Below, in pieces: positions 3,205-63,185 of a stretch of 64,000 nt of DNA (position 1 is the first letter of the stretch; each line of letters starts with the position of its first letter). The DNA lies in NCBI GenBank assembly GCA_043797125.1, contig JAZDPX010000006.1:70921-134920 (forward strand), given 5' to 3'. The notes below the pieces were generated by a model. That model saw only the letters and a program-made list of their open reading frames with translations, was not told the origin of the DNA and ran no database searches. This stretch comes from Candidatus Omnitrophota bacterium (GTDB lineage Bacteria; Omnitrophota; Gorgyraeia; JABMRG01; JAFGKX01). The position numbers and the translations under genes are program-made.

Positions 3205-3396
3205 TTATATACCTCTGCCCATAATCTTTTTAAGGGCCGCAATATCTCTTTCCGTATATTCCCTCCAACCGTTGAGTTTATTTCTCACCGCCTTCGGGAA
3301 TATGCCTTTGATTTCATATCTAATAAGCGTCTGCTTGGAGATATCCAGTATTTCAGCGACTTCATTAACTGAATAATATTTTTCCGCGCGCATCAT
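3205..3396 (-). CDS. Small excisionase/MerR-family HTH DNA-binding protein
   Basis: 63 aa with ...YSVNEVAEILDISKQTLIRYEIKGIFPKAVRNKLNGWREYTERDIAAL, which matches the excisionase-family HTH_17 pattern. Its stop abuts the pilM start. Confidence 0.6.
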   Translation of the reverse strand: MMRAEKYYSVNEVAEILDISKQTLIRYEIKGIFPKAVRNKLNGWREYTERDIAALKKIMGRGI

Positions 3397-3427: not shown

Positions 3428-3453
3428 GTAGCGCAGGCTTAAGCCTGCGCTAC
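3428..3453. repeat. Family A perfect palindrome GTAGCGCAGGCTTAAGCCTGCGCTAC (copy 1)
   Basis: 26-bp perfect hairpin. Identical copies are at 42733-42758 and 61727-61752. Confidence 0.8.
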
Positions 3454-3613: not shown

Positions 3614-3997
3614 TTACGCTGCGCTTCTGATTGCTTCTGATGCCTTTTTTGCGCTCTTGAGTGTGAATGATTGAATATCGTAATAGCAGTGTTTAGAGGT
3701 GTACGAAAAATCTGCGTTGAAAGGGCGGCCCCATGAAGTCATATCTATTATTTTAAGTGGCGAAGTTTTCAGTAAAAAGTTTTTTATGCCCCTTCTGCCG
3801 TAAAAATCTGATCCGCTATTGATGTTTTTTGGATAGATTCCCCATGAAGCAGGCACTATTTTAAAAATGTCTTTCCAGGATTTTATTTCCAGCAATCTTT
3901 GCATATCTATTATATTTCCCGACTTTACATCCGCCATAAAGACAATGCCTTTGGATATTAAAATTCTAGATACATCATCCATAATAACCCTGGCCAT
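3614..3997 (-). CDS. Hypothetical protein
   Basis: 127-aa ORF with no recognisable motifs. It lies downstream of the LRP-protein pair. Confidence 0.3.
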   Translation of the reverse strand: MARVIMDDVSRILISKGIVFMADVKSGNIIDMQRLLEIKSWKDIFKIVPASWGIYPKNINSGSDFYGRRGIKNFLLKTSPLKIIDMTSWGRPFNADFSYTSKHCYYDIQSFTLKSAKKASEAIRSAA

Positions 3998-6332: not shown

Positions 6333-6574
6333 TTCCCTTTATATCCCCATTAATTAAATGTTTTATCCTTCGGCTTGCTCAGGATAACCCTGAGCAAGCG
6401 AAGCGTGTCGAAGGGTTAATTTAGCCCAAAATAATGAAACCCCGAAGGTAGACTCTTATGAAGTTCTACATTCGGGGCCCTTTTCATTTACTAATTATAT
6501 AGTGTAACACATAGATATGGGCATTACAAGGAAATTAAGCCTTAAGGCCACCAAGTCACAAGTGAACGTATAAA

Positions 6575-6775
6575 ACGTATAATAAGTGAGGTTTTTGCAA
6601 TGTGAGGTGCATTAGAAATTTTTTTCCAAATGTCTTTTTAGAACTTACGACGAGGGAACGGCTAAGTTTGGATGTTTGGGAAAGTGACCGAGTCGTAAGT
6701 TCAAAAAGACGGAAAAAAATTTCAGCACCGAACATTGCGAAAACCGAACTATGACAGAGATTGCTTCGTCGCCTG
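6575..6775. repeat. Long-hairpin element with conserved termini (family D, copy 1; MITE-like)
   Basis: The 5' end GTGAGGTTTTTGCAATGTGAGGT and the 3' end TTCAGCACCGAACATTGCGAAAACCGAAC are partially inverted (TTTTGCAATG / CATTGCGAAAA). The interior is self-complementary (GAAATTTTTTTCCAAATGTCTTTTTAGAACTTACGACGAG / GAGTCGTAAGTTCAAAAAGACGGAAAAAAATTTC). Confidence 0.6.
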
Positions 6776-6830
6776 GAATAGGCAAAGGCTCCTCGCAATG
6801 ACGGCGATGTGGAAGCTTTAGCGGGATTTG

Positions 6831-8611: not shown

Positions 8612-8617
8612 ATCAAC

Positions 8618-8735
8618 TTTATCCGCCTTCCTTGCTTTTGAACTTCGTGGTAGATAACGTACGGCGGATAACCCGCCGTAGGCTATCTACTCCGAACTGC
8701 CCAATACACGAAGGCGGGCTATCTGGCATTCCTTC
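8618..8735. repeat. Family C composite GC-hairpin repeat (GGCGGATAACCCGCCGTAGGCTATCTAC ... ACACGAAGGCGGGCTATCT), copy 1
   Basis: It shares TTATCCGCCTTC, GAACTTCGTGGTAGATA, GGCGGATAACCCGCCGTAGGCTATCTAC and GAACTGCCCAATACACGAAGGCGGGCTATCT with 15378-15580. It overlaps the tsaB 3' end. Confidence 0.75.
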
Positions 8736-9391
8736 GGATATATATAAAGCGGCAGCAGTTTATAGGGTGAATCCTTATATCCTGCCTTATATCTTACCAA
8801 TGCCAGCTTTCCTAATACATCAGCCTTCGGATAACACGACTCCTCGGGCGCAAAAAAGACAAGCCCCTTTTTTGCCTTTAAAATCTTTTCCTTGTGCTGT
8901 TTGATTATGTCGCCGGCTATAATAGTCGGCTGTTTTATCAAATCCAGAATATCTTCTAACGGCTTTAAAATAAAATCTGTATACGGTTCTGCAGATGCCT
9001 CTTTTTGTTTATAAAAGCGCGCATAGGCATTATTCTGCCTGGCATCAAACAAGATACAAACATCGGTATTGGCCTGCCCTGTAAAATTATTTGCAATTAC
9101 ATCGAAACTCGAAACCCCGACCAAAGGCCTCTTTAGCGCTATGCTAAAAGTTCGTATGGCAGCAAGAGATGTCCTTAATCCTGTAAATGAACCCGGCCCT
9201 GTGCCTGCGCAAAAAAGCTCTATTTCTTCTATGCGCCAATTGATATTTTCCAGCAGTTTCTTAACTTCAGAAACAACTGCTGAGCCCTGGCTTCTTAAAA
9301 AATTCTTGTGCAACAGCGCCATGGGCTTTTCATCGCTTAAAAGGGCTATGCTAATTGTTTTTGTTGATGTATCTACCGCTAATATCTTCAT
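8687..9391 (-). CDS. tsaB: tRNA t6A biosynthesis protein TsaB (YeaZ); the C-terminal ~16 aa are encoded by a family-C repeat element
   Basis: MKILAVDTSTKTISIALL... is an inactive Kae1 paralog. The C-terminal PKECQIARLRVLGSSE* lies inside the repeat at 8687-8735. Confidence 0.75.
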   Translation of the reverse strand: MKILAVDTSTKTISIALLSDEKPMALLHKNFLRSQGSAVVSEVKKLLENINWRIEEIELFCAGTGPGSFTGLRTSLAAIRTFSIALKRPLVGVSSFDVIANNFTGQANTDVCILFDARQNNAYARFYKQKEASAEPYTDFILKPLEDILDLIKQPTIIAGDIIKQHKEKILKAKKGLVFFAPEESCYPKADVLGKLALVRYKAGYKDSPYKLLPLYIYPKECQIARLRVLGSSE

Positions 9392-9864
9392 CCCGCACCT
9401 TTTTTATATTCATTTTTAAATTGTTCAAAGGTGCGGGATTCATATCTTTTTCCGAAACCCTGCAACTCTATTTCTCTTGAATTTTCATCTAAAATTTTTA
9501 TTTTAATCTCCAAGTACTGCTTGGGCAGCAGGGCCTTTATTTTCTGCGCCCATTCTATCACGCAAACGCCGTCATTATAAAGATATTCTTCAATGCCCAA
9601 CGATTCTGCGCCTGTTAAATTATCTAGGCGGTATAAATCAATGTGATAAAGCTGGAGCCTGCCCTCATACTCTCTTATTAAAACAAAGGACGGGCTATTT
9701 ACATAGTCGGAATTTTTTACGCCAAGGCCCTCGGCAATGCCTTTTGTTAAAGTGGTCTTTCCGCTGCCGAGTTCGCCTGTCAACGCTATAACATCTCCGG
9801 CGTTAAGGCAAGTTGAGAGTTCTTTGCCGAAATCTATTGTATGCTTTGCAGTTCGAGTAATCAT
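9388..9864 (-). CDS. tsaE: tRNA t6A biosynthesis ATPase TsaE (YjeE)
   Basis: GDVIALTGELGSGKTTLTKGIAEGLG is a P-loop; the size and context next to tsaB fit. Confidence 0.8.
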   Translation of the reverse strand: MITRTAKHTIDFGKELSTCLNAGDVIALTGELGSGKTTLTKGIAEGLGVKNSDYVNSPSFVLIREYEGRLQLYHIDLYRLDNLTGAESLGIEEYLYNDGVCVIEWAQKIKALLPKQYLEIKIKILDENSREIELQGFGKRYESRTFEQFKNEYKKGAG

Positions 9865-9867
9865 ACT

Positions 9868-9965
9868 TATGGGGACGTTTCACTCCCAAGATTGGGAAGT
9901 GTCCCCTTTACCCCACTTCTATGCTCTGGGGACACTTTCCACGCTTGGGAGTGAAACGTCCCCTT
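9868..9965. repeat. About 95-bp nested inverted repeat between thiL and tsaE
   Basis: GGGGACGTTTCACTCCCAAG ... CTTGGGAGTGAAACGTCCCC forms a 20-bp outer stem around GGGAAGTGTCCCC / GGGGACACTTTCC. Confidence 0.75.
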
Positions 9966-9977
9966 TTTTTCTTTTTT

Positions 9978-10874
9978 TTAAAAGTGTTCATATCCTTCAG
10001 GCTCAAGCCGGCTTTCCTTGCCCCTTCTATCAACCAAAACCATCCTTCCTGCATTATTCGTTATCTCGCCTATCGCGGTTATCTTTATTTTTCTTTTTTT
10101 GGAACTTGAAAGCAGCCTTTTGGCGTCTTTTTTCGCTGTCGTAAAAAGGAGCTCAAACTGCTCGCCTGTTGTAAGCGCTCTTTTTACGGATGCGCCTTCA
10201 TAAGGAATTAAAGACTCGTAAATTTTAGCGCCTTTTTTGCTTTCAGATAAAATGCGCCATAGGTCAAGCGCAAGTGAGTCAGATATATCTATCATGGAAT
10301 TTATCTTAAAATTATCCGCCAAAAACTGCGCTTCTTTAATCCTGGGAGAAAAACCTAAATCATTAGGATAAGGCCTTAAAGCCCCTGTTATAAATATCAC
10401 ATCTTGATCCTTCGCGCCGCTGCGAAGGGCAAGCCTTTTCTTGGATACTTCACCGATTAGAGTAACGGATAAAACCATTTTTTTTGAAAAATTTGTATCG
10501 CCGCCTACTATGGATATGCCGAATTCAGAAGCTGTCTTATGCATGCTAAGATAGAGCCTTTTAATAAAATCGACACTAATGTCCTTTGGCAGGCCTACTG
10601 AAACAAGCGCCCATTTTGCCTTGCCGGCGCATGCTGCTATATCGCTTATGTTCACCGCCATTGCCTTATGGCCTATCTGTTCCGGGGATGCCTTATCCAG
10701 CCTAAAATGCGCATCTTCAATTATCATATCGGTAGTAACAAGAAGATATTTGTCTTTAGTATATTTAAGCACGGCGCAGTCATCGCCAATGCCTTTAAAC
10801 ACCGAAGGGGGAGTCTTTGTAAGTGCGGCTATTTTATTTATTAGAGCTATTTCGCCTATGTCGCGTAGTTTCAT
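9978..10874 (-). CDS. thiL: Thiamine-monophosphate kinase
   Basis: The AIR-synthase-related fold shows in ...GDDCAVL...LLVTTDMIIEDAHF. Confidence 0.75.
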   Translation of the reverse strand: MKLRDIGEIALINKIAALTKTPPSVFKGIGDDCAVLKYTKDKYLLVTTDMIIEDAHFRLDKASPEQIGHKAMAVNISDIAACAGKAKWALVSVGLPKDISVDFIKRLYLSMHKTASEFGISIVGGDTNFSKKMVLSVTLIGEVSKKRLALRSGAKDQDVIFITGALRPYPNDLGFSPRIKEAQFLADNFKINSMIDISDSLALDLWRILSESKKGAKIYESLIPYEGASVKRALTTGEQFELLFTTAKKDAKRLLSSSKKRKIKITAIGEITNNAGRMVLVDRRGKESRLEPEGYEHF

Positions 10875-11909: not shown

Positions 11910-12965
11910 TTAACCTGCTTGAGCCATTACGCTTTTGACAAAAAACATAATCGATGCCAATGCGGCATTATGCGTAATATGGACGATGATAGACGGAATA
12001 AGCGAGCCTGTCTTTTCCCTTAAATATGCCAAAAAGATGCCGAGGCCGAGTATCGGGAAAAATCCAATTATATTCGTATGAAGCGCGGAAAAAATCAACG
12101 CAGTAATAATTATAGAGGCTGCCGCGCTTAGAGTCTTTTTTAAGGCGGGATATAAAAACCCCCTGAAGAAAATCTCTTCTATTACAGGCCCGATAAAGGC
12201 CGCCATAACCGATACTACCATCAACACAGAGAATCTGCGCTCTTTAAATATCAATTCGTATATCGGTTGGGGTTGCGGCATATAGTTGAGCAGCTTGGCA
12301 ATAAATACTACGCATAAAAATGTCGCGGCCAAAACCGGCAAAAATGCCAAATATCCATAAACCGCTACACCTATATTTTTTGCAACGGCTTTTAATGAAA
12401 TGCCTAATGCGGTTATCTTCTGTTTATATTTTACCGATACAAAATAAATAACTACTATGAGCATAAGCATATCCATCAGCGTAGTATCCAAAATCATAGA
12501 TAGCCTTTCATCCAGTAAAGGTTTGTTAAAAAAGCCTGCCAGAACATTCCCAAGCGCAAAAACCAGATGATTAAAAAATAAAAATATTATTACAATCTTT
12601 ACAGCATCTTTCCAGCTCCAGAGGGCCGGATCTTCATCAAGCATCTTTGGAATTAAATCTTTGCCTTTTGCCTTATTAACAATGAAGGTGGCAAGAAAAA
12701 TAATCCCCAAAACAAACAATACAAATACAATGAAACAAATATAAGCGAACCTTGTGGCAATTTTAGGATTTTCAGCAAGCGCCTTTTCAAAAAGGCCTTT
12801 GTCTTCATCGAGCTGCTGTTTGAAACTCTGCGCCTTTTGCGGCCTGGCCTTCAAGCTTTGTTTAGGGTCTTGCGCATGAATAAAAATGCCGTGTGCCTGA
12901 ATAAGCAATATCCCTACAATCAGCCATACGTAGAATTTATTATTGGCGTAAGCCCCGCGTATCAT
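11910..12965 (-). CDS. CPBP-family (CAAX) intramembrane metalloprotease
   Basis: Multi-TM protein with an EEIFFRG...HITHNA motif arrangement. Confidence 0.65.
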
Positions 12966-14491: not shown

Positions 14492-14496
14492 AATTT

Positions 14497-14580
14497 AGTC
14501 TATGGTCTATGGTCGATGGTCGATGGTTGATGGTCGATGGTTGATTACCGACTATAGACTATCGACTATTGACCATCGAC
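14497..14580. repeat. Family E repeat (GGTCGATGG / GACTATCGAC direct and inverted units), between ricT and metG
   Basis: TCTATGGTCTATGGTCGATGGTCGATGGTTGATGGTCGATGGTTGATTACCGACTATAGACTATCGACTATTGACCATCGACTATT. A related copy lies at 29470-29545. Confidence 0.7.
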
Positions 14581-15368
14581 TATTTATTATAATCCACCTT
14601 CACGTGCCTGCCGTCTTCAAGCTCAACCGTAACAACGCGTTTTAAAAAATTAACATCCACTACCTTCCCTGTTTCGTTCTGATATTTTATCTTTTGCCCC
14701 GGGTGCGGCAGGCCCTTGGAAAGTTTCTTGTAATGGGTATGTTCGTATGACAGGCAGCACATAAGCCTGCCGCAAAGCCCTGAAATTTTTGCCGGGTTTA
14801 GGGGAAGGTTCTGGTCCTTTGCCTGTTTTATCGAAACAGGTTCAAAGTCCCTCAAGAAACTTCTGCAGCAAAGCATCCTGCCGCAAGGCCCGAAACCTCC
14901 GAGGATCTTCGCTTCGTCGCGCACGCCGACCTGCTTTAATTCAATCCTGGCCTTGAACATCTTTGCTAAGTCTTTGACTAATTCCCTGAAATCTATTCTT
15001 TCCTCAGCTGTAAAATAAAATATGATCTTGCTGCAGTCAAAAGAGAATTCCCCCTTGATCAACTTCATGTTAAGTTTATGCTGGATTATTTTACCGTCGC
15101 AGGTCTTCATGACCTCTTTTATTTTTTCGCGGTTTTCTTTTATTTTGTTTATGTCTGCCTGGTCGGCGATTCTAACTGCTCTTGGAAGCTCCTCTTTAAG
15201 CTTTTTTTCATCCAACACCAGCTCTGCCTCTGATAAAATCTGCCCGTAATCAAGGCCCCTGTCCGCTTCGATAATAACATACGCTCCGGGAAAAACATTT
15301 AAATCGCCTATGTCATAAACCTCTATCTTGCCGAATTCTCTCTGTCTTATCTGTATCGCTCTCTTCAT
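14580..15368 (-). CDS. ricT: PSP1 C-terminal domain protein RicT/YaaT
   Basis: Strong similarity pattern to B. subtilis YaaT: ...IFYFTAEERIDFRELVKDLAKMFKARIELKQVGVRDEAKILGGFGPCGRMLCC. Confidence 0.8.
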   Translation of the reverse strand: MKRAIQIRQREFGKIEVYDIGDLNVFPGAYVIIEADRGLDYGQILSEAELVLDEKKLKEELPRAVRIADQADINKIKENREKIKEVMKTCDGKIIQHKLNMKLIKGEFSFDCSKIIFYFTAEERIDFRELVKDLAKMFKARIELKQVGVRDEAKILGGFGPCGRMLCCRSFLRDFEPVSIKQAKDQNLPLNPAKISGLCGRLMCCLSYEHTHYKKLSKGLPHPGQKIKYQNETGKVVDVNFLKRVVTVELEDGRHVKVDYNK

Positions 15369-15377
15369 TGTCTATCC

Positions 15378-15580
15378 TTTATCCGCCTTCGCTGTTAATA
15401 AGAACTTCGTAGTAGATATGCTTCGGCGGATAACCCGCCGTAGGCTATCTACCTTCGCCAAGCAGCTTTCGCGCTTGGCTTCGGCGGATACGCCCGCCGA
15501 AGGCTATCTACACCGAACTGCCCAATACACGAAGGCGGGCTATCTACTACGAACCCACCCGATACACGAAGGCGGGTTAA
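15378..15580. repeat. Family C composite repeat, copy 2 (longer, with internal duplication), between holB and ricT
   Basis: Same modules as copy 1, with extra units GGCGGATACGCCCGCCGAAGGCTATCTAC and CACGAAGGCGGG repeated. Confidence 0.75.
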
Positions 15581-16428
15581 CCTTTTAAGCCAACTATTCT
15601 ATCAAGCAAATAGTCCGCAACCAGTTTCGAATTGACATTAGCCTGCACTAATGTTTTTGACTTAAAAACTTCCTTCATAAGCTCGAGTGTGCCCTCGGCT
15701 GAATAACGCTGCGATATCTTTTGTATATCCTCTTGTTTTGCTTTACTGATAAAATTTATTTTATCCTCCAAAAATCTATGAATAAGGGCATCTCTAAAAT
15801 ATAGAAGCAATAAATCAATTACCCGCAGCTGTCGTTGCCTGCTTGAGCCTGTAAACTCGAGGCTTTCGGCAGAAAATCTGTCCGGGGCATTTAAAAGTTC
15901 GTTTGCCAGCGCTATTTCCTTTTCGGAAAAATTCATATATTCCGCTTCGGAAAATTTTATAACCTGGCAGCGGGAGATTATCGTCGCCAGAAAAACGCTT
16001 AAATTCGAGCTTATTAAAATAATAATAACATCTTTAGGCGGCTCTTCCAAAGTCTTAAGCAGGCAGTTGGAAGCCTCCTCAGTCATGGTATCAGCATCGT
16101 ATAATATGTAAACCTTTTTGCGCGCCTCTATCGCCTTCAGGTGCGCGTGCCTTTGAAGGCTCCTTATTTGCTCAATCTTTATCTGCCGCGAATCCTCTTC
16201 GGCGCGTATGTGCATTATATCAGGATGATTAAAATGCCCGATCTTTGTGCAGGATATGCATTTTCCGCAGCCGCAGAGGCTGTCTTTTTTTTCAAGGCAG
16301 TTTAAGCAAGCCGCGAGTTTAAGCGCCGTCTTTTCCGTTGCTGCCTTATCCTGACCTGAAAAGATGTATGCGTGAGGCAGGCTGCCTGATTTAACCGCAT
16401 TATCTAATATATTGTCTGCTAATTGCAT
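15577..16428 (-). CDS. holB: DNA polymerase III delta-prime subunit
   Basis: LPHAYIFSG... together with a Zn-module CxxC...C and an AAA+ lid; it lies next to tmk as in Firmicutes. Confidence 0.75.
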   Translation of the reverse strand: MQLADNILDNAVKSGSLPHAYIFSGQDKAATEKTALKLAACLNCLEKKDSLCGCGKCISCTKIGHFNHPDIMHIRAEEDSRQIKIEQIRSLQRHAHLKAIEARKKVYILYDADTMTEEASNCLLKTLEEPPKDVIIILISSNLSVFLATIISRCQVIKFSEAEYMNFSEKEIALANELLNAPDRFSAESLEFTGSSRQRQLRVIDLLLLYFRDALIHRFLEDKINFISKAKQEDIQKISQRYSAEGTLELMKEVFKSKTLVQANVNSKLVADYLLDRIVGLKG

Positions 16429-17056
16429 CTTTTGCTGCTTTCTGTATAAGCGCCTGTATCTGGTGGATACTGTTCTTTTGCGCTGAAAATACCATTATGC
16501 GCTTTTTGTCTTTTCTTGCAAGCGCCAGGTATCCGTTTCTTACCTTACAATGAAAAGATACAGGCCTTTTTTCTATTCTGTCAATAAAACCTTTGGCTGT
16601 TTTTGAACGTCCCAGGCCCAAGCGCGCCTCAATATCCAAGATAAACGTAATATCCGGCTTTATATTTCCGACACTAAAATTATTAATATTATCCAGAGCC
16701 TTTATGTCAAGGCCTAAGCCATATCCCTGATAAGCCAGTGTGGCGTCTGCAAACCTGTCGCATACAACTATCCTGCCGGATTCAAGGGCAGGTATTATTT
16801 TTTCCGATACAAGCTGTGCCCTTGCCGCGATATAAAGAAACGCTTCTGCCTTTGAGTCAATAGCTATGTTTTTTGATTTTAACAAAATAGTCCTTATAAG
16901 CTCGCCTAATTTTGTAGCGCCGGGCTCCCTAAGGTGCAGCACATTAAGCCTGCGCCTTTTTAAAAATGCGCAAAGCAGCTTCGAGTGCGTGGATTTCCCG
17001 CTTCCCTCCGGCCCCTCGAATGTAATAAATACGCCTTTTTTCATGCCGGCCGCCAA
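16400..17056 (-). CDS. tmk: Thymidylate kinase
   Basis: GVFITFEGPEGSGKST is a P-loop; the LID DRF motif is present. Confidence 0.85.
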   Translation of the reverse strand: MAAGMKKGVFITFEGPEGSGKSTHSKLLCAFLKRRRLNVLHLREPGATKLGELIRTILLKSKNIAIDSKAEAFLYIAARAQLVSEKIIPALESGRIVVCDRFADATLAYQGYGLGLDIKALDNINNFSVGNIKPDITFILDIEARLGLGRSKTAKGFIDRIEKRPVSFHCKVRNGYLALARKDKKRIMVFSAQKNSIHQIQALIQKAAKDAISRQYIR

Positions 17057-18441
17057 ACTGTACCCTCCTTAGTATCTTCTATTGCTATGCCTTTGGCCTT
17101 TAATTCCTGCCTTATCAAATCTGCCTTTTTAAAATCTTTGGAGTTTCTTGCTTTATTGCGTTCGCTTATCTTTGACTCAACATAAGTCTCTAGTTGTGCG
17201 TCTATCTGTTTGCCCCTTAAAAATAGGCCGAATATGCCGCCCAACTCTTTTATCAACGTCGCTGCATATAGCATGTTTTCATCCGATGATTTATTTGCCT
17301 CTCTAAGCATATCAAATAAACAAGCCAATGCCTGCGGGGTGTTGAAATCGTCGTCCATTGCCTCTATAAATTTTTCTTTAAGCGCGTCTATTTGGGCTGC
17401 CTGCCCCGCACCTGAACGAAGTGAATGGTGCGGGGTGGGCTCTAGTCTATTTACTTTATCAAATAATATATAAAACCTCTCAAGCGCTGCCTTAGCCTCA
17501 TTCATCCTCTCGTCGCTAAAATCTATGGGCTGGCTGTAATGGCTGCTGATCATAAAAAATTTGATTGTTTCCGCGTCGTATTTTTTCAAAGCAGCCTTAA
17601 TTGTTATAAAATTCCCTAAAGACTTTGCCATCTTTTGGCCGTTTATGGTCAACAGGCCGTGGTGTATCCAGTATTTTGCAAATGGTTTACCTGTGCGCGC
17701 CTCTGCCTGCGCAATCTCGTTTTCGTGGTGAGGAAATATCAGGTCCCTGCCGCCTGCGTGTATATCAAGCGTATCTGTCTTTAAAAACTTCTGGCTCATT
17801 ACAGAACATTCTATATGCCAGCCTGGCCTGCCGCCCCCCCAGGGGCTATCCCATGAAGGCTCGCCTTCCTTTGAAGTCTTCCATAACGCAAAATCCAGCG
17901 CATCCTGTTTTTTCTCATCAGGCTCAATGCGCACTCCCTCACGCATCTGGTCTATATTCTGCCCTGAGAGCTTGCCGTAACCGGAAAACTTCTTTACATT
18001 AAAATACACATCCCCGCCTGCTTTATAAGCATAGCCTTTGTCTATCAATACCTTTATATATTCGATAATATCAGCAATAGTCTTGGTTGCCCTTGGTTCC
18101 TCTTTATCTTTATCTAATATGCCTTTACGTATATTCAACAACCCTAAATCTTTGTTATAGCTTTCAATGTATTTACTAACAAGTTCTTTCCAATCAACTT
18201 TCAGCTCTTTGGCGCGGTTTATTATTTTATCGTCGATGTCTGTAATGTTGCGCACAAAATTAACCTTATAACCTCTATATTCTAAATACCGTCTCATTAC
18301 ATCGAAAACATAAAGGCTCCTGGCATGGCCTACATGAGACTCGTCATATACGGTTACCCCGCACGTATACATATTCACCGTCTTCGGCTTTATCGTCTCG
18401 AACTCTTCTTTCTTGTTTGTAAGCGAATTATATATTTTCAT
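17041..18441 (-). CDS. cysS: Cysteinyl-tRNA synthetase; carries an in-frame palindromic repeat insertion (family F)
   Basis: HIGH (HVGHARS) and KMSKS (KMAKSLGN) motifs are present. The insertion peptide LEPTPHHSLRSGAGQAAQ is encoded by the element at about 17395-17450. Confidence 0.9.
   Translation of the reverse strand: MKIYNSLTNKKEEFETIKPKTVNMYTCGVTVYDESHVGHARSLYVFDVMRRYLEYRGYKVNFVRNITDIDDKIINRAKELKVDWKELVSKYIESYNKDLGLLNIRKGILDKDKEEPRATKTIADIIEYIKVLIDKGYAYKAGGDVYFNVKKFSGYGKLSGQNIDQMREGVRIEPDEKKQDALDFALWKTSKEGEPSWDSPWGGGRPGWHIECSVMSQKFLKTDTLDIHAGGRDLIFPHHENEIAQAEARTGKPFAKYWIHHGLLTINGQKMAKSLGNFITIKAALKKYDAETIKFFMISSHYSQPIDFSDERMNEAKAALERFYILFDKVNRLEPTPHHSLRSGAGQAAQIDALKEKFIEAMDDDFNTPQALACLFDMLREANKSSDENMLYAATLIKELGGIFGLFLRGKQIDAQLETYVESKISERNKARNSKDFKKADLIRQELKAKGIAIEDTKEGTVWRPA
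17395..17450. repeat. Family F hairpin element inserted in-frame in cysS
   Basis: GGGCTGCCTGCCCCGCACCTGAACGAAGTGAATGGTGCGGGGTGGGCTC, with stem CCCCGCACC / GGTGCGGGG. It is flanked by GTCTATTT ... AGTCTATTT, a possible 8-bp direct duplication. Confidence 0.7.
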
Positions 18442-18467: not shown

Positions 18468-18700
18468 ACGGGTGAGGTTTTTGCGATGTGAGGTACTTAA
18501 AAAGCTTTTGTGTGTGTTGCCGGAGCGACTGTCAAAAATTGCGAAAACCCGGCGAGCAGTGAGCAATTTTTGCCACAGCGAGCAAAAAGCGCCTTTCGCC
18601 GAAGGCGAAAAATCCTTTTTGCGAGCGGCAAGCGAAGGCAACCACACAAAAGCTTAAAATTTCAGCACCGAGCATTGCAAAAGCCGAACTTTGGTAATAG
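18468..18700. repeat. Family D long-hairpin element, copy 2, between cysE and cysS
   Basis: Same termini (GTGAGGTTTTTGCGATGTGAGGT ... TTCAGCACCGAGCATTGCAAAAGCCGAAC). The interior is a different perfect inverted repeat (AAGCTTTTGTGTGTGTTGCC / GGCAACCACACAAAAGCTT). Confidence 0.6.
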
Positions 18701-19372
18701 CTATTTTTTCTCCTCCAGCTCCTTAACCCTTCTCTCCAAATCCTCAAGCGTCTGCTTCAGCGGATCCAACACATGGATATGATCCATCGTAGAGTCTATT
18801 CTTCTTCCGTCCTGCTTTGTTACTCTTCCTGGCACACCCACTACAGTTGAATTTGACGGAACATCCTTTAGCACCACCGCGTTTGCGCCTATGTATGAAT
18901 TATCGCCAATATTGATATTTCCCAATACTTTCGCGCCTGTGCCTACAACAACATTATTTCCTATGTTTGGGTGGCGCTTGCCTTTTTCCTTGCCTGTCCC
19001 GCCCAGGGTAACGCCCTGGAATAATGTAACATTATCCTTTATAACTGTTGTCTCGCCAATGACCACGCCCATGCCATGGTCTATAAAAAACCCTTTGCCT
19101 ATTTGGGCGCCGGGGTGTATCTCAACCCCCGTAAGAAATTTTGCAAATTGCGATAAAAACCTCGGCAAAAAAGGAATCTTCATTTTGCGCAAAACGTGCG
19201 TTACCCGGTACATCATAATCGCGTGCAGGCCTGAATACGTAAGCAAAACCTCAAGAAAATTCGTAGCCGCAGGATCCCTGTCAAACGCCGCTTTTATTTC
19301 GTCTTTAAAAACCACAGTTATTATCGCCATAAAAAATATTATTATGCCTGATATAACTAACAAGGTAATCAT
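18701..19372 (-). CDS. cysE: Serine O-acetyltransferase
   Basis: Has the N-terminal SAT helical domain and C-terminal hexapeptide repeats. Confidence 0.8.
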   Translation of the reverse strand: MITLLVISGIIIFFMAIITVVFKDEIKAAFDRDPAATNFLEVLLTYSGLHAIMMYRVTHVLRKMKIPFLPRFLSQFAKFLTGVEIHPGAQIGKGFFIDHGMGVVIGETTVIKDNVTLFQGVTLGGTGKEKGKRHPNIGNNVVVGTGAKVLGNINIGDNSYIGANAVVLKDVPSNSTVVGVPGRVTKQDGRRIDSTMDHIHVLDPLKQTLEDLERRVKELEEKK

Positions 19373-19844: not shown

Positions 19845-20530
19845 CTTCTCGCCAGAGCCTGCGCTATCTTCAAATCTTCTCTCGTCGTTATCTTAATGTT
19901 TCTATAATCCCCGGGTATTACCTTAACCTTTATGCCGCATGCTTCAGCAAGCGAAGCATCGTCGTTAAACCTCCATGCCCTCACATTTAATTTTTCATAA
20001 GCTGCGAGTAGCTGCTTTCTGTTAAAAGCCTGGGGGGTCTGCGCCTCCCACAAAGAGTTGCGGTCCGGCGTATTTAATACGTATCTGTTTTTTAAATTTA
20101 TTTTTTTTATCGTGGCTTTAACTCCGACTGCTAAAAGGCAGTTGGTGCCCTTTGAAACCGTGTCGGCGCATTTTTTTATTAAAGAAGGCGCTATAAACGG
20201 CCTTGCCGCATCGTGTATCAAAACATAAAAAGAATCTTTGCAGGCGCATAATCCATTATAAACAGAACGCGCGCGCGTTGAACCGCCTGAAACTATACGG
20301 CTTATCTTTTTATACTTTCTTTTTTCAATAAGGCCTTTTGCCTTTTTTAAAAAATACCTTGCTGCGACAAAAACAATATCATCTACGAATTTTGATTTTT
20401 CAAATGCATCGAGCGAGTAAAATAAAAGTTTCCTGTCGCCGATTTTAATTAACGGCTTAGGCGTGGCAAGGCGCATCCTCTTGCCCGTGCCGCCGGCCAC
20501 TATTATTGCTGTTATCTTTTTCTTATCCAA
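19841..20530 (-). CDS. ispD: 2-C-methyl-D-erythritol 4-phosphate cytidylyltransferase
   Basis: ...[12 protein letters not shown]... is a nucleotidyltransferase fold; the gene is adjacent to ispF. Confidence 0.85.
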
Positions 20531-22937: not shown

Positions 22938-22940
22938 GGA

Positions 22941-23048
22941 TTTAATTAAAAATTCAAAATTAAAAATGCAAAATTGCAATTAAAAATTTAAAATTTAAAA
23001 TTTTGAATTTTTAATTGTAATTTTTAATTTTACATTTTTAATTTTTAA
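22941..23048. repeat. Family B AT-rich palindromic repeat (AATTAAAAAT..AAAATTGCAATT..), copy 1, between mlaD and radA
   Basis: Long AT-rich dyad built from AATTAAAAATT / AATTTTTAATT and GCAAAATTGCA units. Related copies are at 30440-30556 and 44884-44960. Confidence 0.7.
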
Positions 23049-23049
23049 T

Positions 23050-23730
23050 TTATCTAATGCCTTTATCCTTATCCTCTTCTGTCTTCCTCGGCTCTCTTGG
23101 CTTGCTCAAAAGCTTCCAGGGGTTTTGCCTTATATCCTTGATCATCGCTTTTATATCTTCCGATATCTCTTCTATATTATTATATAATTTATCATCCATA
23201 AGCAGCTTGCCGACCGTACCTTCTTTTGCCTTTACCTTATCCAGGATGCCATTTATAGAATCCAGCATTGTTTCTATTTTAAGTATGACATCATAACCTT
23301 TTTGCGTCATCTTCTGCATCGAAACGGAATCAAATCCTATGATAACATCTCCGTCCTGCAAAACAGGGCTCTCGGGCGTGCCGGGAATTATCTCAACATA
23401 TTTTTCTCCTATAAGCCCCAATGTGTTTATAAGCACTGTGGCGTCCTTCTCAATCTTGGCATCATCAGTAAGCCACACCATTAATTCAACTTTTGTCTTT
23501 TTGGTCTCGGGGTCCTTAAATATACTAGTGCTTTTTACTTCTCCTACTTCGACACCGGCAACTCTGACAGGAGCCGCTATCTGAACGCCGTCGGCAAAAT
23601 TCAGGTGTATTTTTATATTGTATCCTGTTTTAAAGAGAAAATCCCCTATTGAAAAAACTACCATGGCAAGAAGTATAATGCCTACAAATACGAATATACC
23701 TATTCTTATTTCAAAACTATTCTCTTTCAT
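23050..23730 (-). CDS. mlaD: MlaD (MCE domain) phospholipid transport substrate-binding protein
   Basis: An N-terminal TM segment is followed by an MCE domain. Confidence 0.75.
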   Translation of the reverse strand: MKENSFEIRIGIFVFVGIILLAMVVFSIGDFLFKTGYNIKIHLNFADGVQIAAPVRVAGVEVGEVKSTSIFKDPETKKTKVELMVWLTDDAKIEKDATVLINTLGLIGEKYVEIIPGTPESPVLQDGDVIIGFDSVSMQKMTQKGYDVILKIETMLDSINGILDKVKAKEGTVGKLLMDDKLYNNIEEISEDIKAMIKDIRQNPWKLLSKPREPRKTEEDKDKGIR

Positions 23731-29455: not shown

Positions 29456-29469
29456 CGAAACTCCCTAAT

Positions 29470-29545
29470 TTGGTCCATAGTCTATGGCCAATGGTCTATA
29501 GTAAATTATCGACCATAGACTATCGACTATTGACTATCGACTAAA
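29470..29545. repeat. Family E repeat, copy 2, between ilvE and mcsA
   Basis: GGTCCATAGTCTATGGCCAATGGTCTATAGTAAATTATCGACCATAGACTATCGACTATTGACTATCGACT uses the same units. Confidence 0.7.
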
Positions 29546-30439: not shown

Positions 30440-30556
30440 TGTTTAATTAAAAATTTAAAATTAAAAATGTAAAATTGCAGTTCAAAATTAAAAATTGTTT
30501 TAAATTTTGAATTTTTAATTGTAATTTTGAATTTTGCATTTTTAATTTTTAATTAT
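30440..30556. repeat. Family B AT-rich palindromic repeat, copy 2, between lolD and ilvE
   Basis: TTCAAAATTAAAAATTG ... CAATTTTTAATTTTGAA dyad centred on GTTTTAAA. It shares AAAATTGCA and TTTTAATTGTAATTTT with copy 1. Confidence 0.7.
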
Positions 30557-31274
30557 TCTCCAGCTTTCCATTAGCTAAATACTTGACATTCTTAAATAAT
30601 TTAGCATATTCACGCTCATGTGTCACTATAATAAAAGAACAATTTTTCTTACTGTTAAGCTCTTTAATCAACTCAAATACAGCCACAGAATTATCGTGGT
30701 CTAAATTACCCGTAGGCTCATCGCATAATACTATATCGGGTTTATTCATCAATGCCCTTGCTATTGCCACCCTCTGAGACTCCCCGCCTGAAAGTTGCGA
30801 CGGCCGGTGGCTGGTTCTCTTTTCGAGCCCAACCGCGCTTAAAAGCTCCTGCGCCCTTTGCTTTGGGCTTTGGGCTCTGTGCTGTGGGCTGCCTGCCCCG
30901 TATCCGAGCGAAGCGAGTGGTGCGGGGTGGGCTCCAATCAGCGCGGGCATCATAACATTTTCCAAAGCGGTAAATTCGCCAAGCAGGTTGTAAAACTGGA
31001 ATACAAATCCAATGCGTTCATTGCGTATCCTGCTTATCTTTGCATCATTCATCTTATATACAGAGGCGCCGTCTAGCAGGACCTCGCCTTTAGTCGGTGA
31101 ATCCAAAGCGCCGAGTATATGAAGCAGCGTGGACTTGCCGCAGCCTGATGGCCCGAATACCAGCATTATCTCGCCGGCACAAAGAGAAAGATCTATTCCG
31201 TTCAATACATGCAACTTGCGGCTTCCGTCCTGATATACCCTGTGCACGTTTTTCGCGGCTAAAATTTCACTCAT
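30549..31274 (-). CDS. lolD: Lipoprotein-releasing ABC transporter ATPase LolD; carries an in-frame repeat-derived insertion
   Basis: Walker A (GPSGCGKST), signature (LSGGESQRVA) and Walker B are present. The insertion GAHPAPLASLGYGAGSPQHRAQSPKQ is encoded by the heptamer tract plus family-F hairpin at about 30858-30945. Confidence 0.8.
   Translation of the reverse strand: MSEILAAKNVHRVYQDGSRKLHVLNGIDLSLCAGEIMLVFGPSGCGKSTLLHILGALDSPTKGEVLLDGASVYKMNDAKISRIRNERIGFVFQFYNLLGEFTALENVMMPALIGAHPAPLASLGYGAGSPQHRAQSPKQRAQELLSAVGLEKRTSHRPSQLSGGESQRVAIARALMNKPDIVLCDEPTGNLDHDNSVAVFELIKELNSKKNCSFIIVTHEREYAKLFKNVKYLANGKLENN
30858..30947. repeat. Heptamer tract plus family F hairpin inserted in-frame in lolD
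   Basis: CTTTGGGCTTTGGGCTCTGTGCTGTGGGCTGCCTGCCCCGTATCCGAGCGAAGCGAGTGGTGCGGGGTGGGCTCC. The GCTGCCTGCCCCG...GGTGCGGGGTGGGCTC part matches the cysS insertion. Confidence 0.7.
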
Positions 31275-38980: not shown

Positions 38981-39139
38981 AAATTCTTTATAAAAGGTTT
39001 ATAGAGATAAATATTTTAACACTCTGCTCCTGCTAAGTCAAGAAAATATCGGACTTTTTTTGAATTAGATCCCCGCTCCCCGTTTTCACGGGGACAAGTT
39101 TCGCGGGGATGACAAAAGAAGCTTTGTGTGCGTTGCCAA

Positions 39140-39372
39140 AATTATTTTTTACAAGGTGAGGCTTTTGCAATAGCACATTACAATTTGCTTAAGGCCTGTG
39201 GCAAGCCGAGCAGGGCTTGCGAGGCCGAGCGGGCATGGTTCGCCCTTGTTTCCATACAGGCGAGAGCGAAGGCCGAGGTCAGAGCACAAAAATCCACGCT
39301 GGGGATTTTTGTGCGTCCCTGCGAGAATTGCCACAAGCCTTAAGCAAAACAGCATCAAGTATTGCAAAAGCC
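39140..39372. repeat. Family D long-hairpin element, copy 3, upstream of the AsmA-like gene
   Basis: Termini GTGAGGCTTTTGCAATAGCAC ... GTATTGCAAAAGCCGAGCC. The interior inverted repeat is GCTTAAGGCCTGTGGCAA / TTGCCACAAGCCTTAAGC. Confidence 0.55.
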
Positions 39373-39430
39373 GAGCCTATGCCCCGAGGCTTTTTGTTGT
39401 TGCAGGTTTGCGCATTGCGGGGTATAATTT

Positions 39431-42732: not shown

Positions 42733-42758
42733 TAAGATAGTAGCGCAGGCTTAAGCCT
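42733..42758. repeat. Family A palindrome (copy 2), between rph and rdgB
   Basis: Identical 26-mer. Confidence 0.8.
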
Positions 42759-42789
42759 GCGCTACTACTATACGCTATCGACCATCTTT

Positions 42790-44026: not shown

Positions 44027-44877
44027 ATTATAACCTCTGCGCTACGGAGAGCATGGCAGCATACATTCACGCAAACCGGCAGACCAGCAATGTGCGTCGG
44101 ATATGTTAATATGTTGACTCCAAGGCAGGTTGTCCTACCGCCTAAGCCCATGGGGCCGATGTTTAGACGGTTGATTTCCGTCAACAAATCTTTCTGTAAT
44201 TTTGCTGTGAGCTTTGAGCTGTGGGCTGTGGGCTGTGGGCTGTGGGCTGTGGGCTCAAGGAGCGCTTTCTTTGCCAATAGACAGGCGTAATCTGCGGTCC
44301 CGCCTATGCCTACGCCTATGATATACGGCGGGCAGGCATCCGCGCCTGCGCATTTAACAACTTCGACAATAAATTTTTTAATCTCGCCGATTCCAACAGT
44401 TGGATTAAACATCTTTAGCTTAGTCTTGTTCTCGCTTCCAAAACCTTTTGGCATTACTGATATTTTTATTTTATCGCCGGATATGATATCGTAGTGTATG
44501 ACTGCCGGCGTATTGGTGTTTGTATTTTTTCTTACCAAGGGATCATCCACTACAGATTTTCTTAAACATCCCTGTTTATACGCTGCTTTTATGCCATTAT
44601 TTATTGCCTTGCTTACATCGCCTATGATCTGTACCTTATTGCCTATTTGACAAAATACTACTACCATACCTGTATCTTGGCATATCGCTATTTTTTGGCA
44701 CCTAGCAATACAGGCATTCTCAATTAATATCTTAAGCATCTTTTTAGCAACAAGCTTTGTTTCGGTTTTAACCGCTTTTTTTAAAGCAGATAAAACATCG
44801 CCGCGTAAATTAAAATTCGCCTTTAACGCCGCCTCACACACCTTTTTTTCTATCTCTTTCACCTTTATTTTTCTCAT
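44023..44877 (-). CDS. Class I fumarate (or L-tartrate) hydro-lyase alpha subunit; contains an in-frame (GCTGTGG)n-derived insertion
   Basis: Fe-S hydro-lyase alpha region (...CQDTGMVVVF...). The PTAHSPQPTAHS insertion is encoded by a heptamer tract at 44205-44260. Confidence 0.75.
   Translation of the reverse strand: MRKIKVKEIEKKVCEAALKANFNLRGDVLSALKKAVKTETKLVAKKMLKILIENACIARCQKIAICQDTGMVVVFCQIGNKVQIIGDVSKAINNGIKAAYKQGCLRKSVVDDPLVRKNTNTNTPAVIHYDIISGDKIKISVMPKGFGSENKTKLKMFNPTVGIGEIKKFIVEVVKCAGADACPPYIIGVGIGGTADYACLLAKKALLEPTAHSPQPTAHSSKLTAKLQKDLLTEINRLNIGPMGLGGRTTCLGVNILTYPTHIAGLPVCVNVCCHALRSAEVII
44205..44260. repeat. Heptanucleotide tandem repeat: GCTGTGG x5 perfect, 7-mer periodicity over 8 units, inside the fumarate hydratase alpha gene
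   Basis: GCTGTGAGCTTTGAGCTGTGGGCTGTGGGCTGTGGGCTGTGGGCTGTGGGCTCAAG. Confidence 0.8.
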
Positions 44878-44883
44878 TTTTTA

Positions 44884-44960
44884 CCTATTTTTAATTTTTA
44901 ATTGTAATTTTGCATTTTGCATTCCTGCCTGCCGGCAGGCAGGTTTAATTTTGAATTTTT
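44884..44960. repeat. Family B repeat, copy 3, plus GC palindrome CCTGCCTGCCGGCAGGCAGG; overlaps the queF 3' end
   Basis: TTTTTAATTGTAATTTTGCATTTTGCATT shared with the other copies. It supplies the queF C-terminus and stop. Confidence 0.6.
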
Positions 44961-54796: not shown

Positions 54797-55233
54797 TGGT
54801 GGAGGCGAGGGGAATTGAACCCCTGTCCTTGAGCGTTCAGCAATAGGCGCTACATGCTTGTCCTGTGCTTTGAATTCGCCCCGATAATCTTGCATAGGCA
54901 CAATCTCATCGGGACTAGCTTTTAAAAATCTCATCCTGCTCTCTAAAAGCTAAAAAAGCGGGACCAGCCTATTAATGACGCCAGACCCGGGCTAAATAGG
55001 CAAACCCGGCTGACGGTAGCCGCGTATTAGGCGGCTAGCGGCATCATGGAAACCATTCCTGTGTTAACAGGAACAACTTCCATGACTTTAGCGCGAATTG
55101 TATCCGCACTTATCATGTAGTCGGCTTTTGCTCCTCGCTTTCGCTCGGAGTCCCTTACGGGACAAGGCCAACCGACCAACCTTGGCATGCTCCTAGTTGC
55201 CCAATCGCATCAAGTCGAACCCTGTTCGCCCCC
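54797..55233 (-). ncRNA. ssrA: tmRNA (SsrA)
   Basis: The minus-strand 5' end GGGGGCGAACAGGGTTCGACTTGATGCG pairs with the 3' end ...GGACAGGGGTTCAATTCCCCTCGCCTCCACCA to give a tRNA-like acceptor/T-arm with CCA. It lies immediately downstream of smpB. A candidate tag ORF ends ...MMPLAA-UAA at about 55026. Confidence 0.8.
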
Positions 55234-55239
55234 ATTTGT

Positions 55240-55305
55240 GTATTGAGTATTGAGTCGTGAGTATTGAGCACTCAATACTCAATACACACGACTCACGACT
55301 AAACA
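55240..55305. promoter_or_regulatory. Imperfect palindrome of GTATTGAG / CTCAATAC units between smpB and ssrA
   Basis: GTATTGAGTATTGAGTCGTGAGTATTGAGCACTCAATACTCAATACACACGACTCACGAC. It could be the smpB terminator and/or ssrA promoter region. Confidence 0.4.
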
Positions 55306-55311
55306 CCTAAT

Positions 55312-55767
55312 CTATTTGCTTCCGCGAGACTTAAACGAGCGTTGTATCTCGCGTTCAACTTGCTTCTCGCGCAACTTTTCTCTCTTATCAAAGAACCTTT
55401 TGCCCTTTGCAACCGCAATCTCTAATTTTACTTTTCCTTTTTTAAAATAGGCCTTTATCGGAATTACCGTATAGCCTTTTTGCGATGTTAAACTTGCAAG
55501 TTTTTGTATCTGCGCTTTATGAAGCAGAAGTTTTCTTGTTCTTGTTGGATCAGGCGCAAACTGGCCGCTTTGCTTATAAGGGCTTATATGCATACCATAC
55601 ACGTAAGCCTGATTATCTGTTATCCTGACGAAACTATCTTTCAGGTTGGCTTCTGCCTGCCTTATGGATTTTACTTCAGCGCCCTTTAGTTCTATGCCTG
55701 CTTCAATGCTGTCAAAAAGAACATAATCAAACGCGGCTTTTCTGTTTGTGATAACTGGGTTTTTCAT
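55312..55767 (-). CDS. smpB: SsrA-binding protein SmpB
   Basis: ...NRKAAFDYVLFDSIEAGIELKGAEVKSIR... Confidence 0.9.
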   Translation of the reverse strand: MKNPVITNRKAAFDYVLFDSIEAGIELKGAEVKSIRQAEANLKDSFVRITDNQAYVYGMHISPYKQSGQFAPDPTRTRKLLLHKAQIQKLASLTSQKGYTVIPIKAYFKKGKVKLEIAVAKGKRFFDKREKLREKQVEREIQRSFKSRGSK

Positions 55768-61726: not shown

Positions 61727-61752
61727 CGTAGCGCAGGCTTAAGCCTGCGCTA
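61727..61752. repeat. Family A palindrome (copy 3), between gspF and the HExxH gene
   Basis: Identical 26-mer with flanking CG. Confidence 0.8.
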
Positions 61753-61772
61753 CGTTTATAGATGATCGACCA

Positions 61773-63039: not shown

Positions 63040-63185
63040 CATAGCTGAAGTTAGAGTATCAGATGATCAGATTACCAGAACAGGATTATCAGAGTATCAG
63101 AGTATCAGATTATCAGAATTTTATCTGATACTCTGATTCTCTGATGTTCTCGTTCTGATACTCTGATTCTCTGATGTTCTAATAC
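63040..63185. repeat. ATCAGA/TCTGAT-rich direct and inverted repeat region between gspE and gspF
   Basis: ATCAGAGTATCAGAGTATCAGATTATCAGAATTTTATCTGATACTCTGATTCTCTGATGTTCT...GATACTCTGATTCTCTGATGTTCT. It contains a dyad and a 24-bp direct duplication. Confidence 0.7.

Follow-up and report, generated by a model that had tools for sequence, protein, structure and literature searches.

The sequences of interest are three foldback elements (copies 1, 2 and 3) that lie within a 64-kb stretch of a Candidatus Omnitrophota genome (contig JAZDPX010000006.1; the whole 64,000-nt stretch is hereafter called the window). The Omnitrophota are known from metagenomes only and have no genetic system, and the literature that we searched contained nothing on their repeat content. 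The window has a G+C content of 42%, and comparison of ~58 open reading frames (ORFs) with Pfam returned housekeeping or type II secretion/pilus genes. Nearly all of the genes are carried by the - strand, which we take to be both the leading and the coding strand because the + strand has a GC skew of about -0.14. Our analysis covered the window and ~150 kb of loci from relatives (given here as L121 to L133), and three copies of the element are known from this material. The CysS proteins of the closest sampled relatives are ~64–72% identical to that of the window.

Copy 1 occupies positions 6585–6751 (~167 nt), copy 2 positions 18471–18691 (221 nt), and copy 3 positions 39155–39377 (223 nt). 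The copies are separated by distances of 12 and 21 kb, amid housekeeping genes, and all three are in the + orientation. Copy 2 is flanked by two genes on the - strand: cysE (serine acetyltransferase-like; 18701–19372; Pfam Hexapep and SATase_N, and synteny), whose stop lies ~10 nt from the element, and cysS (cysteinyl-tRNA synthetase; 17041–18441; Pfam tRNA-synt_1e, E 2e-131), whose start lies 28 nt from it. The window CysS is 100% identical to a protein from an NCBI Candidatus Omnitrophota metagenome-assembled genome. Copy 3 lies between divergently oriented genes. A first-pass annotation of this DNA had located all three elements correctly, with limits that were 5–25 nt too wide; its placement of copy 2 between cysE and cysS agrees with the gene coordinates and with Pfam.

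The three copies share partly inverted ends

Alignment of the three copies revealed common ends of ~37 nt on the 5' side (GTGAGGTTTTTGCAATGTGAGGTGCATTAGAAA) and ~40 nt on the 3' side (AAAATTTCAGCACCGAACATTGCGAAAACCGAAC). The 5' consensus, the 17-mer GTGAGGTTTTTGCAATG, matches the + strand at positions 6586, 18472 and 39156 (with 0, 1 and 2 mismatches, respectively), while the imperfect reverse complement is found at 6733 and 18673. Together, the consensus and its complement have five matches in the window where 0.27 are expected, a number that none of 100 shuffles reached. A pattern search of the window likewise found the 3' end in the three copies. Between copies 1 and 2, BLAST aligned 35 nt of the 3' end (E 1.4e-8) and 23 nt of the 5' end (E 3.4e-6); between copies 2 and 3, it returned an exact 14-nt match. 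Finally, nhmmer profiles of both ends recovered only the three copies (E 1e-10 to 6e-6), with no other site in the window or in the ~150 kb of relatives. The earlier claim of three elements with common, partly inverted ends is upheld by all of these approaches.

The 25-nt terminal arms contain a direct repeat, of either GTGAGGT or CCGAAC, and, as their only palindrome, a 6-bp TTGCAA. In copy 1, the 5' arm (6586–6610, GTGAGGTTTTTGCAATGTGAGGTGC) carries two GTGAGG units placed 16 nt apart, and the 3' arm (6725–6749, GCACCGAACATTGCGAAAACCGAAC) carries two CCGAAC units. The arms of copy 2 lie at 18472–18496 (5'; found by the end consensus, BLAST and nhmmer) and 18656–18689 (3'; AAAATTTCAGCACCGAGCATTGCAAAAGCCGAAC), and those of copy 3 at 39156–39186 (5') and 39346–39376 (3'; AACAGCATCAAGTATTGCAAAAGCCGAGC). 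Copy 3 is the most diverged of the three: GTGAGG unit 1 is intact, unit 2 has decayed, and the second GTGAGG/CCGAAC unit is now an 11x11 internal loop (39173–39183 on the 5' side). Spurious ORFs of 50–110 aa overlap all three copies. On the + strand, the 5' arms of copies 1 (6590–6607) and 2 (18476–18493) also read GAGG-N8-ATG-TGA, that is, a Shine-Dalgarno-like motif, a start and an immediate stop; the motif is missing from copy 3 and is probably a coincidence.

One explanation of such ends is that the copies are classical miniature inverted-repeat transposable elements (MITEs) derived from an insertion sequence (IS). Their 25–37 bp terminal inverted repeats (TIRs) would be recognised, as double-stranded DNA, by a cut-and-paste DDE transposase whose gene lies elsewhere, and the interiors would represent independent deletions or captures. 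The imperfect inverted ends (25–37 nt), the length of less than 300 bp and the intergenic, non-coding nature of the copies are all in line with this, and there are MITE families whose members have nothing but their TIRs in common. However, flank alignments showed no target-site duplication at the borders of any copy. Further, the ends differ at the central dinucleotides (GA vs TC) in both units of copies 1 and 2, which would be odd for symmetric recognition of double-stranded DNA, and the interiors are palindromic, unlike IS remnants. The window contains neither a transposase nor a parent IS with such ends. We consider a classical MITE origin decidedly unlikely.

The ends pair into a helix marked by tandem G.A loops

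The long-hairpin character that the first-pass annotation gave to these elements is borne out by RNA folding of the + strand, in which all three copies fold far better than shuffled controls (-80.2, -95.9 and -112.6 kcal/mol for copies 1, 2 and 3; z scores of -11.7, -7.5 and -7.4). The - strand folds less well in every case (-62.7, -85.2 and -105.3 kcal/mol). Folding with DNA parameters gave the same order of strands for copy 1 (-44.2 on + vs -39.1 on -) and copy 2 (-54.0 vs -50.0).

In these folds the 5' and 3' ends pair into a basal helix with 22 scored pairs, in which 93.8% of scored cells are standard pairs. The helix is broken by two symmetric 2x2 loops of tandem G.A, formed where GTGAGG lies over CCGAAC. 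Over its full length copy 1 has four GA/GA loops, copy 2 three plus one GGA/GAA, and copy 3 two; on the + strand they account for 9 of the 10 2x2 loops in the three copies, and they recur within the non-homologous interiors. Among the other eleven window hairpins, none of seven 2x2 loops is GA/GA. Most of the GA/GA loops in the copies are in a 5'-YGAR-3' context, and nucleic-acid thermodynamics favours sheared tandem G.A pairs in that context.

Variation in the basal helix consists of two double-sided changes and seven one-sided changes, the latter giving G.U cells on the + strand. On the - strand the GA/GA loops turn into TC/TC and the one-sided changes into C.A mismatches, which is why the + strand is the more stable in every copy. 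The covariation itself is no better than in shuffles (240 of 500 were as good, with n=3 sequences) and is suggestive, a hint at most. Mutational bias was considered as a source of the + strand G.U cells and rejected, as deamination on the leading and coding - strand predicts opposite-strand wobbles.

Interiors are unrelated, and one is shared with another genome

The basal helix carries a different interior in each copy. Smith-Waterman comparison of the three interiors (6615–6720, 18500–18655 and 39187–39345) detected no mutual similarity relative to shuffles (p > 0.09), and no interior matches anything else in the window. The first-pass annotation had described each interior as a different near-perfect long inverted repeat; the difference holds, while a single near-perfect repeat is found only in copy 1, and the cores of copies 2 and 3 are branched. 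The copy 2 interior (18500–18655, + strand) has an outer near-perfect stem (AAGCTTTTGTGTG..GTTGCC / GGCAAC..CACAAAAGCTT) followed by two or three sub-hairpins, and includes a C(GAA)G triloop hairpin at 18594–18610. The copy 3 interior (39187–39345, + strand) has an outer stem (TTTGCTTAAGGCCTGTGGCAA / TTGCCACAAGCCTTAAGCAAA) and a branched core. Neither has a homologue in the window or in the relatives. Two short resemblances were discarded as being at chance level: AAGCTTTTGTGTG..GTTGCC, common to the inside of copy 2 and the outside of copy 3 (E 4.3), and ATTGCGAAAACC, which recurs in copy 2 (E 1.1).

The interior of copy 1 does have a homologue. Its distal module, here called X (CATTAG...TTTCAG; 6610–6725, + strand, 116 nt), matches positions 7518–7653 of L130, which is from another Omnitrophota genome (blastn E 2e-14). 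In L130 the module is flanked by a PIN-domain gene and ispD; the corresponding junction measures 1 nt in the window and is non-syntenic with copy 1. The two modules have 33 pairs in common, three of which are compensatory on both sides, and agree exactly in their unpaired nucleotides (CATTA facing A, the bulged AAAT, and a GA/GA loop). Indels set their tips apart. The basal stems beneath them are different, namely GTGAGG.../...CCGAAC under X in copy 1 and ATTGCGGAACGAGA/TCTCGCTCCGCAAT under X in L130. As one base bears three tips in the window, and one tip two bases between genomes, the elements are mosaics of helical modules, and these modules occur in different combinations. The X stems are more than 90% identical between the window and L130 although the CysS proteins of the two genomes are only 66% identical, which points to possible horizontal spread of the module or strong constraint on it.

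A hairpin at the AIRS–TsaE junction (window 9871–9963) also has a counterpart at the same junction in L130 (18735–18860). The L130 copy keeps the outer and inner stems, and its middle differs yet is self-complementary. Judging by these sequences, the AIRS–TsaE hairpin family is a second case of the same mosaic behaviour.

Taken further, the helix with its tandem sheared G.A loops and a few conserved unpaired motifs (CATTA/A, AAAT) could define a class of hairpins by structure rather than by primary sequence, and entire helical modules (base, middle and tip) would move from copy to copy and from genome to genome. This is a tentative proposal, and probably not correct. If it were true, either Omnitrophota would have an undescribed, structure-specific machinery for inserting or swapping hairpins inside other hairpins, or the copies would be antisense structured RNAs in which a protein-binding base stays constant and the rod is hypervariable.

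Copy 2 interrupts a junction that is short in most relatives

The gene block ispD-ispF-cysE-cysS-tmk-holB is syntenic in all of the relatives recovered. In eight of these the spacer between cysE and cysS is short and empty: 4 nt in each of L126, L131 and L132, 11 nt in L128, 21 nt in L122, 23 nt in L133, 39 nt in L129 and 45 nt in L123. In the window the spacer is 259 nt long and contains copy 2; without the element, ~45 nt would remain, resembling the spacer of L123. The comparison shows that copy 2 is an insertion into a junction that is 4–45 nt long in the eight relatives. Two further relatives have long spacers that contain unrelated hairpins (L121, 197 nt, hairpin at 9804–10000; L130, 328 nt, hairpins at 9673–9960). 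No promoter-like site was found between copy 2 and cysS; cysS is therefore most likely transcribed through the element.

The cysE–cysS hairpin of L130 also contains tandem GA/GA loops, on the gene-sense strand. Relative to the genes, the strand bearing GA is antisense in copy 1, copy 2 and the L130 copy of X, and sense in the cysE–cysS hairpins of L130 and L121. We had entertained the rule that the G.A strand is always antisense; the latter two hairpins contradict it, and the mixture of senses indicates that there is no fixed relation to transcription.

The presence of a different, unrelated hairpin at one and the same junction in each of three lineages raises the possibility of local hairpin growth (by template switching, palindrome extension or slippage), with the common ends of copies 1–3 having been shared by gene conversion or recombination. 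Slippage is suggested by the many hairpins whose building blocks are short and periodic, often heptamers; the changed middle and conserved stems of the AIRS–TsaE hairpin can be read in the same way, as can a repeat family (family E) with a 59-nt internal duplication or insertion. However, near-identical ends of 37–40 nt at three unlinked sites need sequence transfer, as does a 116-nt module common to genomes as divergent as those of the window and L130. In addition, copying by fold-back would erase the conserved GA mismatches. Local growth is, in our estimation, quite unlikely to account for the three copies.

Transcription signals and RNA families

At the Rfam gathering threshold no match was obtained for copies 1–3, the only window match at that level being transfer-messenger RNA (tmRNA). 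With E values of up to 10, the three regions yield only sub-threshold, microRNA-precursor-like matches, which reflect generic hairpin likeness. No promoter or terminator common to the copies was found, and on the - (gene) strand no T-run of the intrinsic-terminator kind follows copy 1 or copy 2. Signals do occur at individual copies. A promoter-like site stops 2 nt short of copy 1, and a small terminator-like hairpin plus T-run lies on the + strand at 39373–39392, abutting the 3' end of copy 3. The promoters of the two divergent genes both appear to have copy 3 on their upstream side. The structured intercistronic RNA proposed in the first-pass annotation thus retains some plausibility, yet has neither a conserved promoter or terminator nor an Rfam match to speak for it.

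A more specific form of this idea is that the copies are structured non-coding RNA genes on the + strand, antisense to operons at copies 1 and 2, in which the basal G.A helix serves as a protein-binding or processing platform and the rod is a variable payload. Several of the above results fit: (i) folding favours the + strand in each of the copies, (ii) its 2x2 loops are almost all GA/GA in YGAR context, and read UC/CU on the other strand, (iii) the seven one-sided basal changes are G.U on the + strand, while two pairs change on both sides, (iv) copy 1 and its L130 homologue keep identical unpaired loops while three pairs covary, and (v) copy 3 abuts a terminator-like signal and copy 1 a promoter-like one. 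Set against these are the lack of any promoter or terminator common to the copies and of real Rfam matches even at E 10, the absence of the element from most relatives and the non-synteny of its sites, and the wholesale replacement of the interior between copies. Orientation to transcription is not constant either, the GA strand being gene-sense at the L130 cysE–cysS junction. Lastly, the three-sequence covariation is at shuffle level, and the arms of a DNA palindrome can co-evolve without RNA. On balance an RNA gene family seems unlikely, although the strand asymmetry and the conserved loops still speak for it.

A probable mosaic variety of palindromic repeat

The focal repeat family is real and previously uncatalogued, and looks like a mosaic variety of the known palindromic repeats. 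The interpretation that we lean towards, with little more than even confidence, is that copies 1–3 represent a small, lineage-specific, non-autonomous and non-coding foldback repeat of the kind that includes repetitive extragenic palindromes (REPs), REPINs, bacterial interspersed mosaic elements (BIMEs) and MITEs, and that they have colonised permissive gene junctions. Among the analogies offered in the first-pass annotation, a hairpin-type mobile element is the best fit, given the insertion relative to eight relatives, the hairpin-rich genome, and the occurrence of module X at a non-syntenic site.

Conserved ends with a variable hairpin middle had been presented as unusual. That premise was too strong: in REPINs, which are REP doublets, the inverted ends are conserved and the spacer between them is less so, what matters in the spacer being that it can fold into a hairpin; REPINs also show compensatory changes and insert into one another (Bertels & Rainey 2011; PMC3116915). 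Interiors that are unrelated and of different length nevertheless exceed that description. As in REPINs, the inverted ends of copies 1–3 pair, together with the spacer, into a long hairpin, with compensatory changes between the arms. Neither kind of element codes for protein or shows a clear target duplication; both occupy extragenic positions and can be nested or clustered with other repeats. In REP–RAYT systems the gene for the Y1 transposase (RAYT, REP-associated tyrosine transposase) is flanked by the same repeats, of which there are tens to hundreds of copies per genome. Here, by contrast, there is no RAYT in the window, three copies are known, and tandem G.A loops are the signature. Because the ends are non-palindromic, the interiors long and unrelated, the helices marked by G.A loops, and no RAYT is visible, we do not file the copies as REPINs.

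Other repeat families invite comparison. Pneumococcal BOX elements have conserved terminal boxA and boxC sequences that are able to pair, and a variable interior; both BOX elements and the BIMEs of E. coli are built from interchangeable modules. Like these, the copies are modular, intergenic, probably co-transcribed and hairpin-forming. BIME and BOX interiors are, however, drawn from a small set of recurring modules, whereas the present interiors are unique in 64 kb and only X was found again, in another genome; nor is there any sequence similarity to BIMEs or BOX. The Correia (NEMIS) elements of Neisseria and the enterobacterial ERIC elements form TIR hairpins in RNA that are RNase III substrates and alter mRNA stability, and have length variants that arose by internal indels. 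Copies 1–3 resemble them in size (100–200 bp), in having terminal inverted repeats, and in lying between co-transcribed genes. They differ in that Correia elements have a TA duplication and a recognisable body, while the copies have no duplication and unrelated bodies.

The first-pass annotation also likened the elements to integron attC sites. In an attC site the boxes 5' RYYYAAC...GTTRRRY 3' pair at the base of a ~57–141 bp structure with extrahelical bases; the sites are arrayed downstream of intI, each ending a promoterless cassette. That copies 1–3 might be attC sites or remnants of gene cassettes is suggested by their conserved, pairing terminal boxes, their variable and imperfectly palindromic centre, and a presumed action as a folded single strand; in addition, a single mismatch separates GTGAGGT from the core consensus GTTRRRY, and ACCGAAC from RYYYAAC. 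The polarity of these heptamers relative to the hairpin is, however, reversed on both strands (GTGAGGT...ACCGAAC on +, GTTCGGT...ACCTCAC on -). At 167, 221 and 223 nt the copies exceed the length of attC sites, and their loops are symmetric GA/GA and asymmetric CATTA/A rather than the attC pattern. They are scattered amid housekeeping genes on the opposite strand; the 64 kb contain neither intI nor attI nor a cassette array, and there is no integrase among the ~58 ORFs. The integron analogy is highly implausible, and we have abandoned it.

Searches for further copies and for a mobilising enzyme

Two metagenome scans and two viral scans, with a 22-mer for the 5' end and a 27-mer for the 3' end that matches all three copies, gave no hits, and blastn against phage and plasmid collections gave no match. 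A scan of a genome collection with the 16-mer GTGAGGYTTTTGCRAT returned 120 matches in unrelated phyla; these are chance matches to a pattern too short to be specific, and none of the 120 has the 3' end nearby. Within the window and the relatives, fuzzy patterns and nhmmer detected no uninterrupted, "empty" basal hairpin and no additional divergent copies. The spurious ORFs across copies 1 and 2, used as protein probes, found no match in a library of 1.84 billion proteins.

Several observations weigh against a mobile foldback repeat. Firstly, the agent of mobility is hypothetical, as the ~58 window ORFs (Pfam) and the gene tables of the relatives contain no transposase, Y1/HUH enzyme, RAYT, integrase or reverse transcriptase; the Y1/HUH transposase or integron integrase that the first-pass annotation proposed to look for is not among them. 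Secondly, no copies were found outside the genome of the window, leaving three in all. Thirdly, the copies lack two hallmarks of REPINs: (i) the ends are not short palindromes, as REPs are, and the arms form no hairpin by themselves in the predicted folds, and (ii) the spacers are 105–160 nt long, unrelated and unequal, while REPINs have a fixed spacing of, for example, 71 bp. Fourthly, the better-folding strand is, going by GC skew, the template of the leading strand, the opposite of the preference of IS200/IS605-type elements. Finally, three features hint at selection on one strand, which a selfish repeat of double-stranded DNA would not need: the near-exclusive GA/GA identity of the 2x2 loops on the + strand, the G.U wobbles on that strand, and the unpaired loop nucleotides kept between two genomes.

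If the copies are indeed mobile foldback repeats, the following scenario may be envisaged. The elements would spread and recombine as DNA, mobilised in trans by a structure-recognising enzyme encoded outside of the window, perhaps an HUH/Y1 enzyme of the RAYT or TnpA type. Such an enzyme could handle single-stranded hairpin DNA ends without generating target duplications, and module swapping might occur at the A/T-rich joints between helices. Inside operons (copies 1 and 2), the complement of the element would be read through as part of the mRNA, where it may fold into a hairpin of great stability (-63 to -85 kcal/mol) that lacks a U-tract. The hairpin could then act in the manner of REPs or Correia elements, as an RNase III target or a block to 3' exonucleases, and so uncouple the neighbouring genes. 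Any such effect on the mRNA would presumably be a by-product rather than the reason for the element's existence.

A wider implication is that the tightly packed housekeeping operons of some Omnitrophota lineages have been invaded by long hairpins, while the closest sampled relatives keep junctions of 4–45 nt. When they lie inside operons, hairpins of 60–110 kcal/mol are bound to influence mRNA processing as well as the quality of assemblies and the calling of genes. Should the modular exchange and the G.A signature hold genome-wide, they would provide a handle on how REP-like repeats diversify, and on the enzyme that recognises them.

Other hairpins and repeats in the window and its relatives

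Long hairpins belonging to several small families crowd the spacers of the window genome and of L121 and L130, while the compact relatives have almost none. The focal family is one member of this broader colonisation by palindromic repeats.

In the same three "invaded" genomes, tandem arrays of ~7-nt units (e.g. TGGTCGA, GTATTGA, TATCAGAG and CGGTTAT) form hairpin arms, with a different sequence at each site; these hairpins are absent from the compact relatives. They lie at 14492–14600, 29456–29545, 55234–55311 and 63045–63185 in the window; at 3671–3769, 9016–9119 and 15764–15961 in L121; and at 3247–3321, 6364–6464 and 13864–13966 in L130. This part of the background, as distinct from copies 1–3, recalls the small dispersed and heptamer repeats of cyanobacteria. 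The published heptamer arrays of cyanobacteria and Beggiatoaceae are direct repeats (PMC4679880), whereas those seen here form long hairpins. Heptamers of the GGGCTGT type also occur inside ORFs, at 30857–30891 (ABC ATPase) and 44201–44263 (fumarate hydratase alpha subunit); since three units make up 21 nt, or seven codons, the reading frame is kept.

A 55-nt hairpin repeat is found in two genes, at 17393–17447 in cysS and at 30885–30939 in the ABC ATPase gene. The two copies are 85% identical and are read in different frames, encoding EPTPHHSLRSGAGQAAQ in a variable linker of CysS and AHPAPLASLGYGAGSPQ in the ATPase. In this they resemble the in-frame Rickettsia palindromic elements, a likeness that concerns the background of this genome and not copies 1–3. 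A perfect 26-nt palindrome, GTAGCGCAGGCTTAAGCCTGCGCTAC, has three identical copies in spacers (3428–3453, 42740–42765 and 61728–61753), and its leading GTAG is reminiscent of repeats of the REP/SMAG type.

The AIRS–TsaE hairpin family has the layout GGGGACGTTTC..GGAAAGTGTCCCC..GGGGACACTTTCC..GAAACGTCCCC, and, as with REPINs, these four units may alternatively form a pair of short hairpins. Further copies are present in L130 at 12064–12134, 15509–15590, 16640–16702 and 20097–20160. Near-pure A/T hairpins (4–14% G+C, arms of ~53 nt) lie at 22940–23055, 30440–30560 and 44887–44923, the two full copies being 90% identical. The repeat family with a 59-nt internal insertion has copies at 8617–8724 and 15377–15579; the insertion, carried by one of them, is composed of a new small hairpin and a duplicated part of the element.

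Two motifs lie beside long hairpins in more than one genome: GATTGCTTCG...CTCGCAATGA (window 6765–6803, L130 9913–9953) and the hairpin CCCCGC...GCGGGGATGAC (window 39068–39112, L121 13140–13180). Strings of this kind, with spurious products ending in ...APRNDG and ...FRGNDG, are presumably widespread in assemblies of uncultured bacteria. Lastly, the window contains a tmRNA gene (54797–55233, - strand; Rfam 153.5 bits) whose predicted tag peptide, ADTIRAKVMEVVPVNTGMVSMMPLAA, is unusually long. The smpB gene (55312–55767, - strand) lies just upstream of it, with the heptamer-unit hairpin at 55234–55311 between the two.

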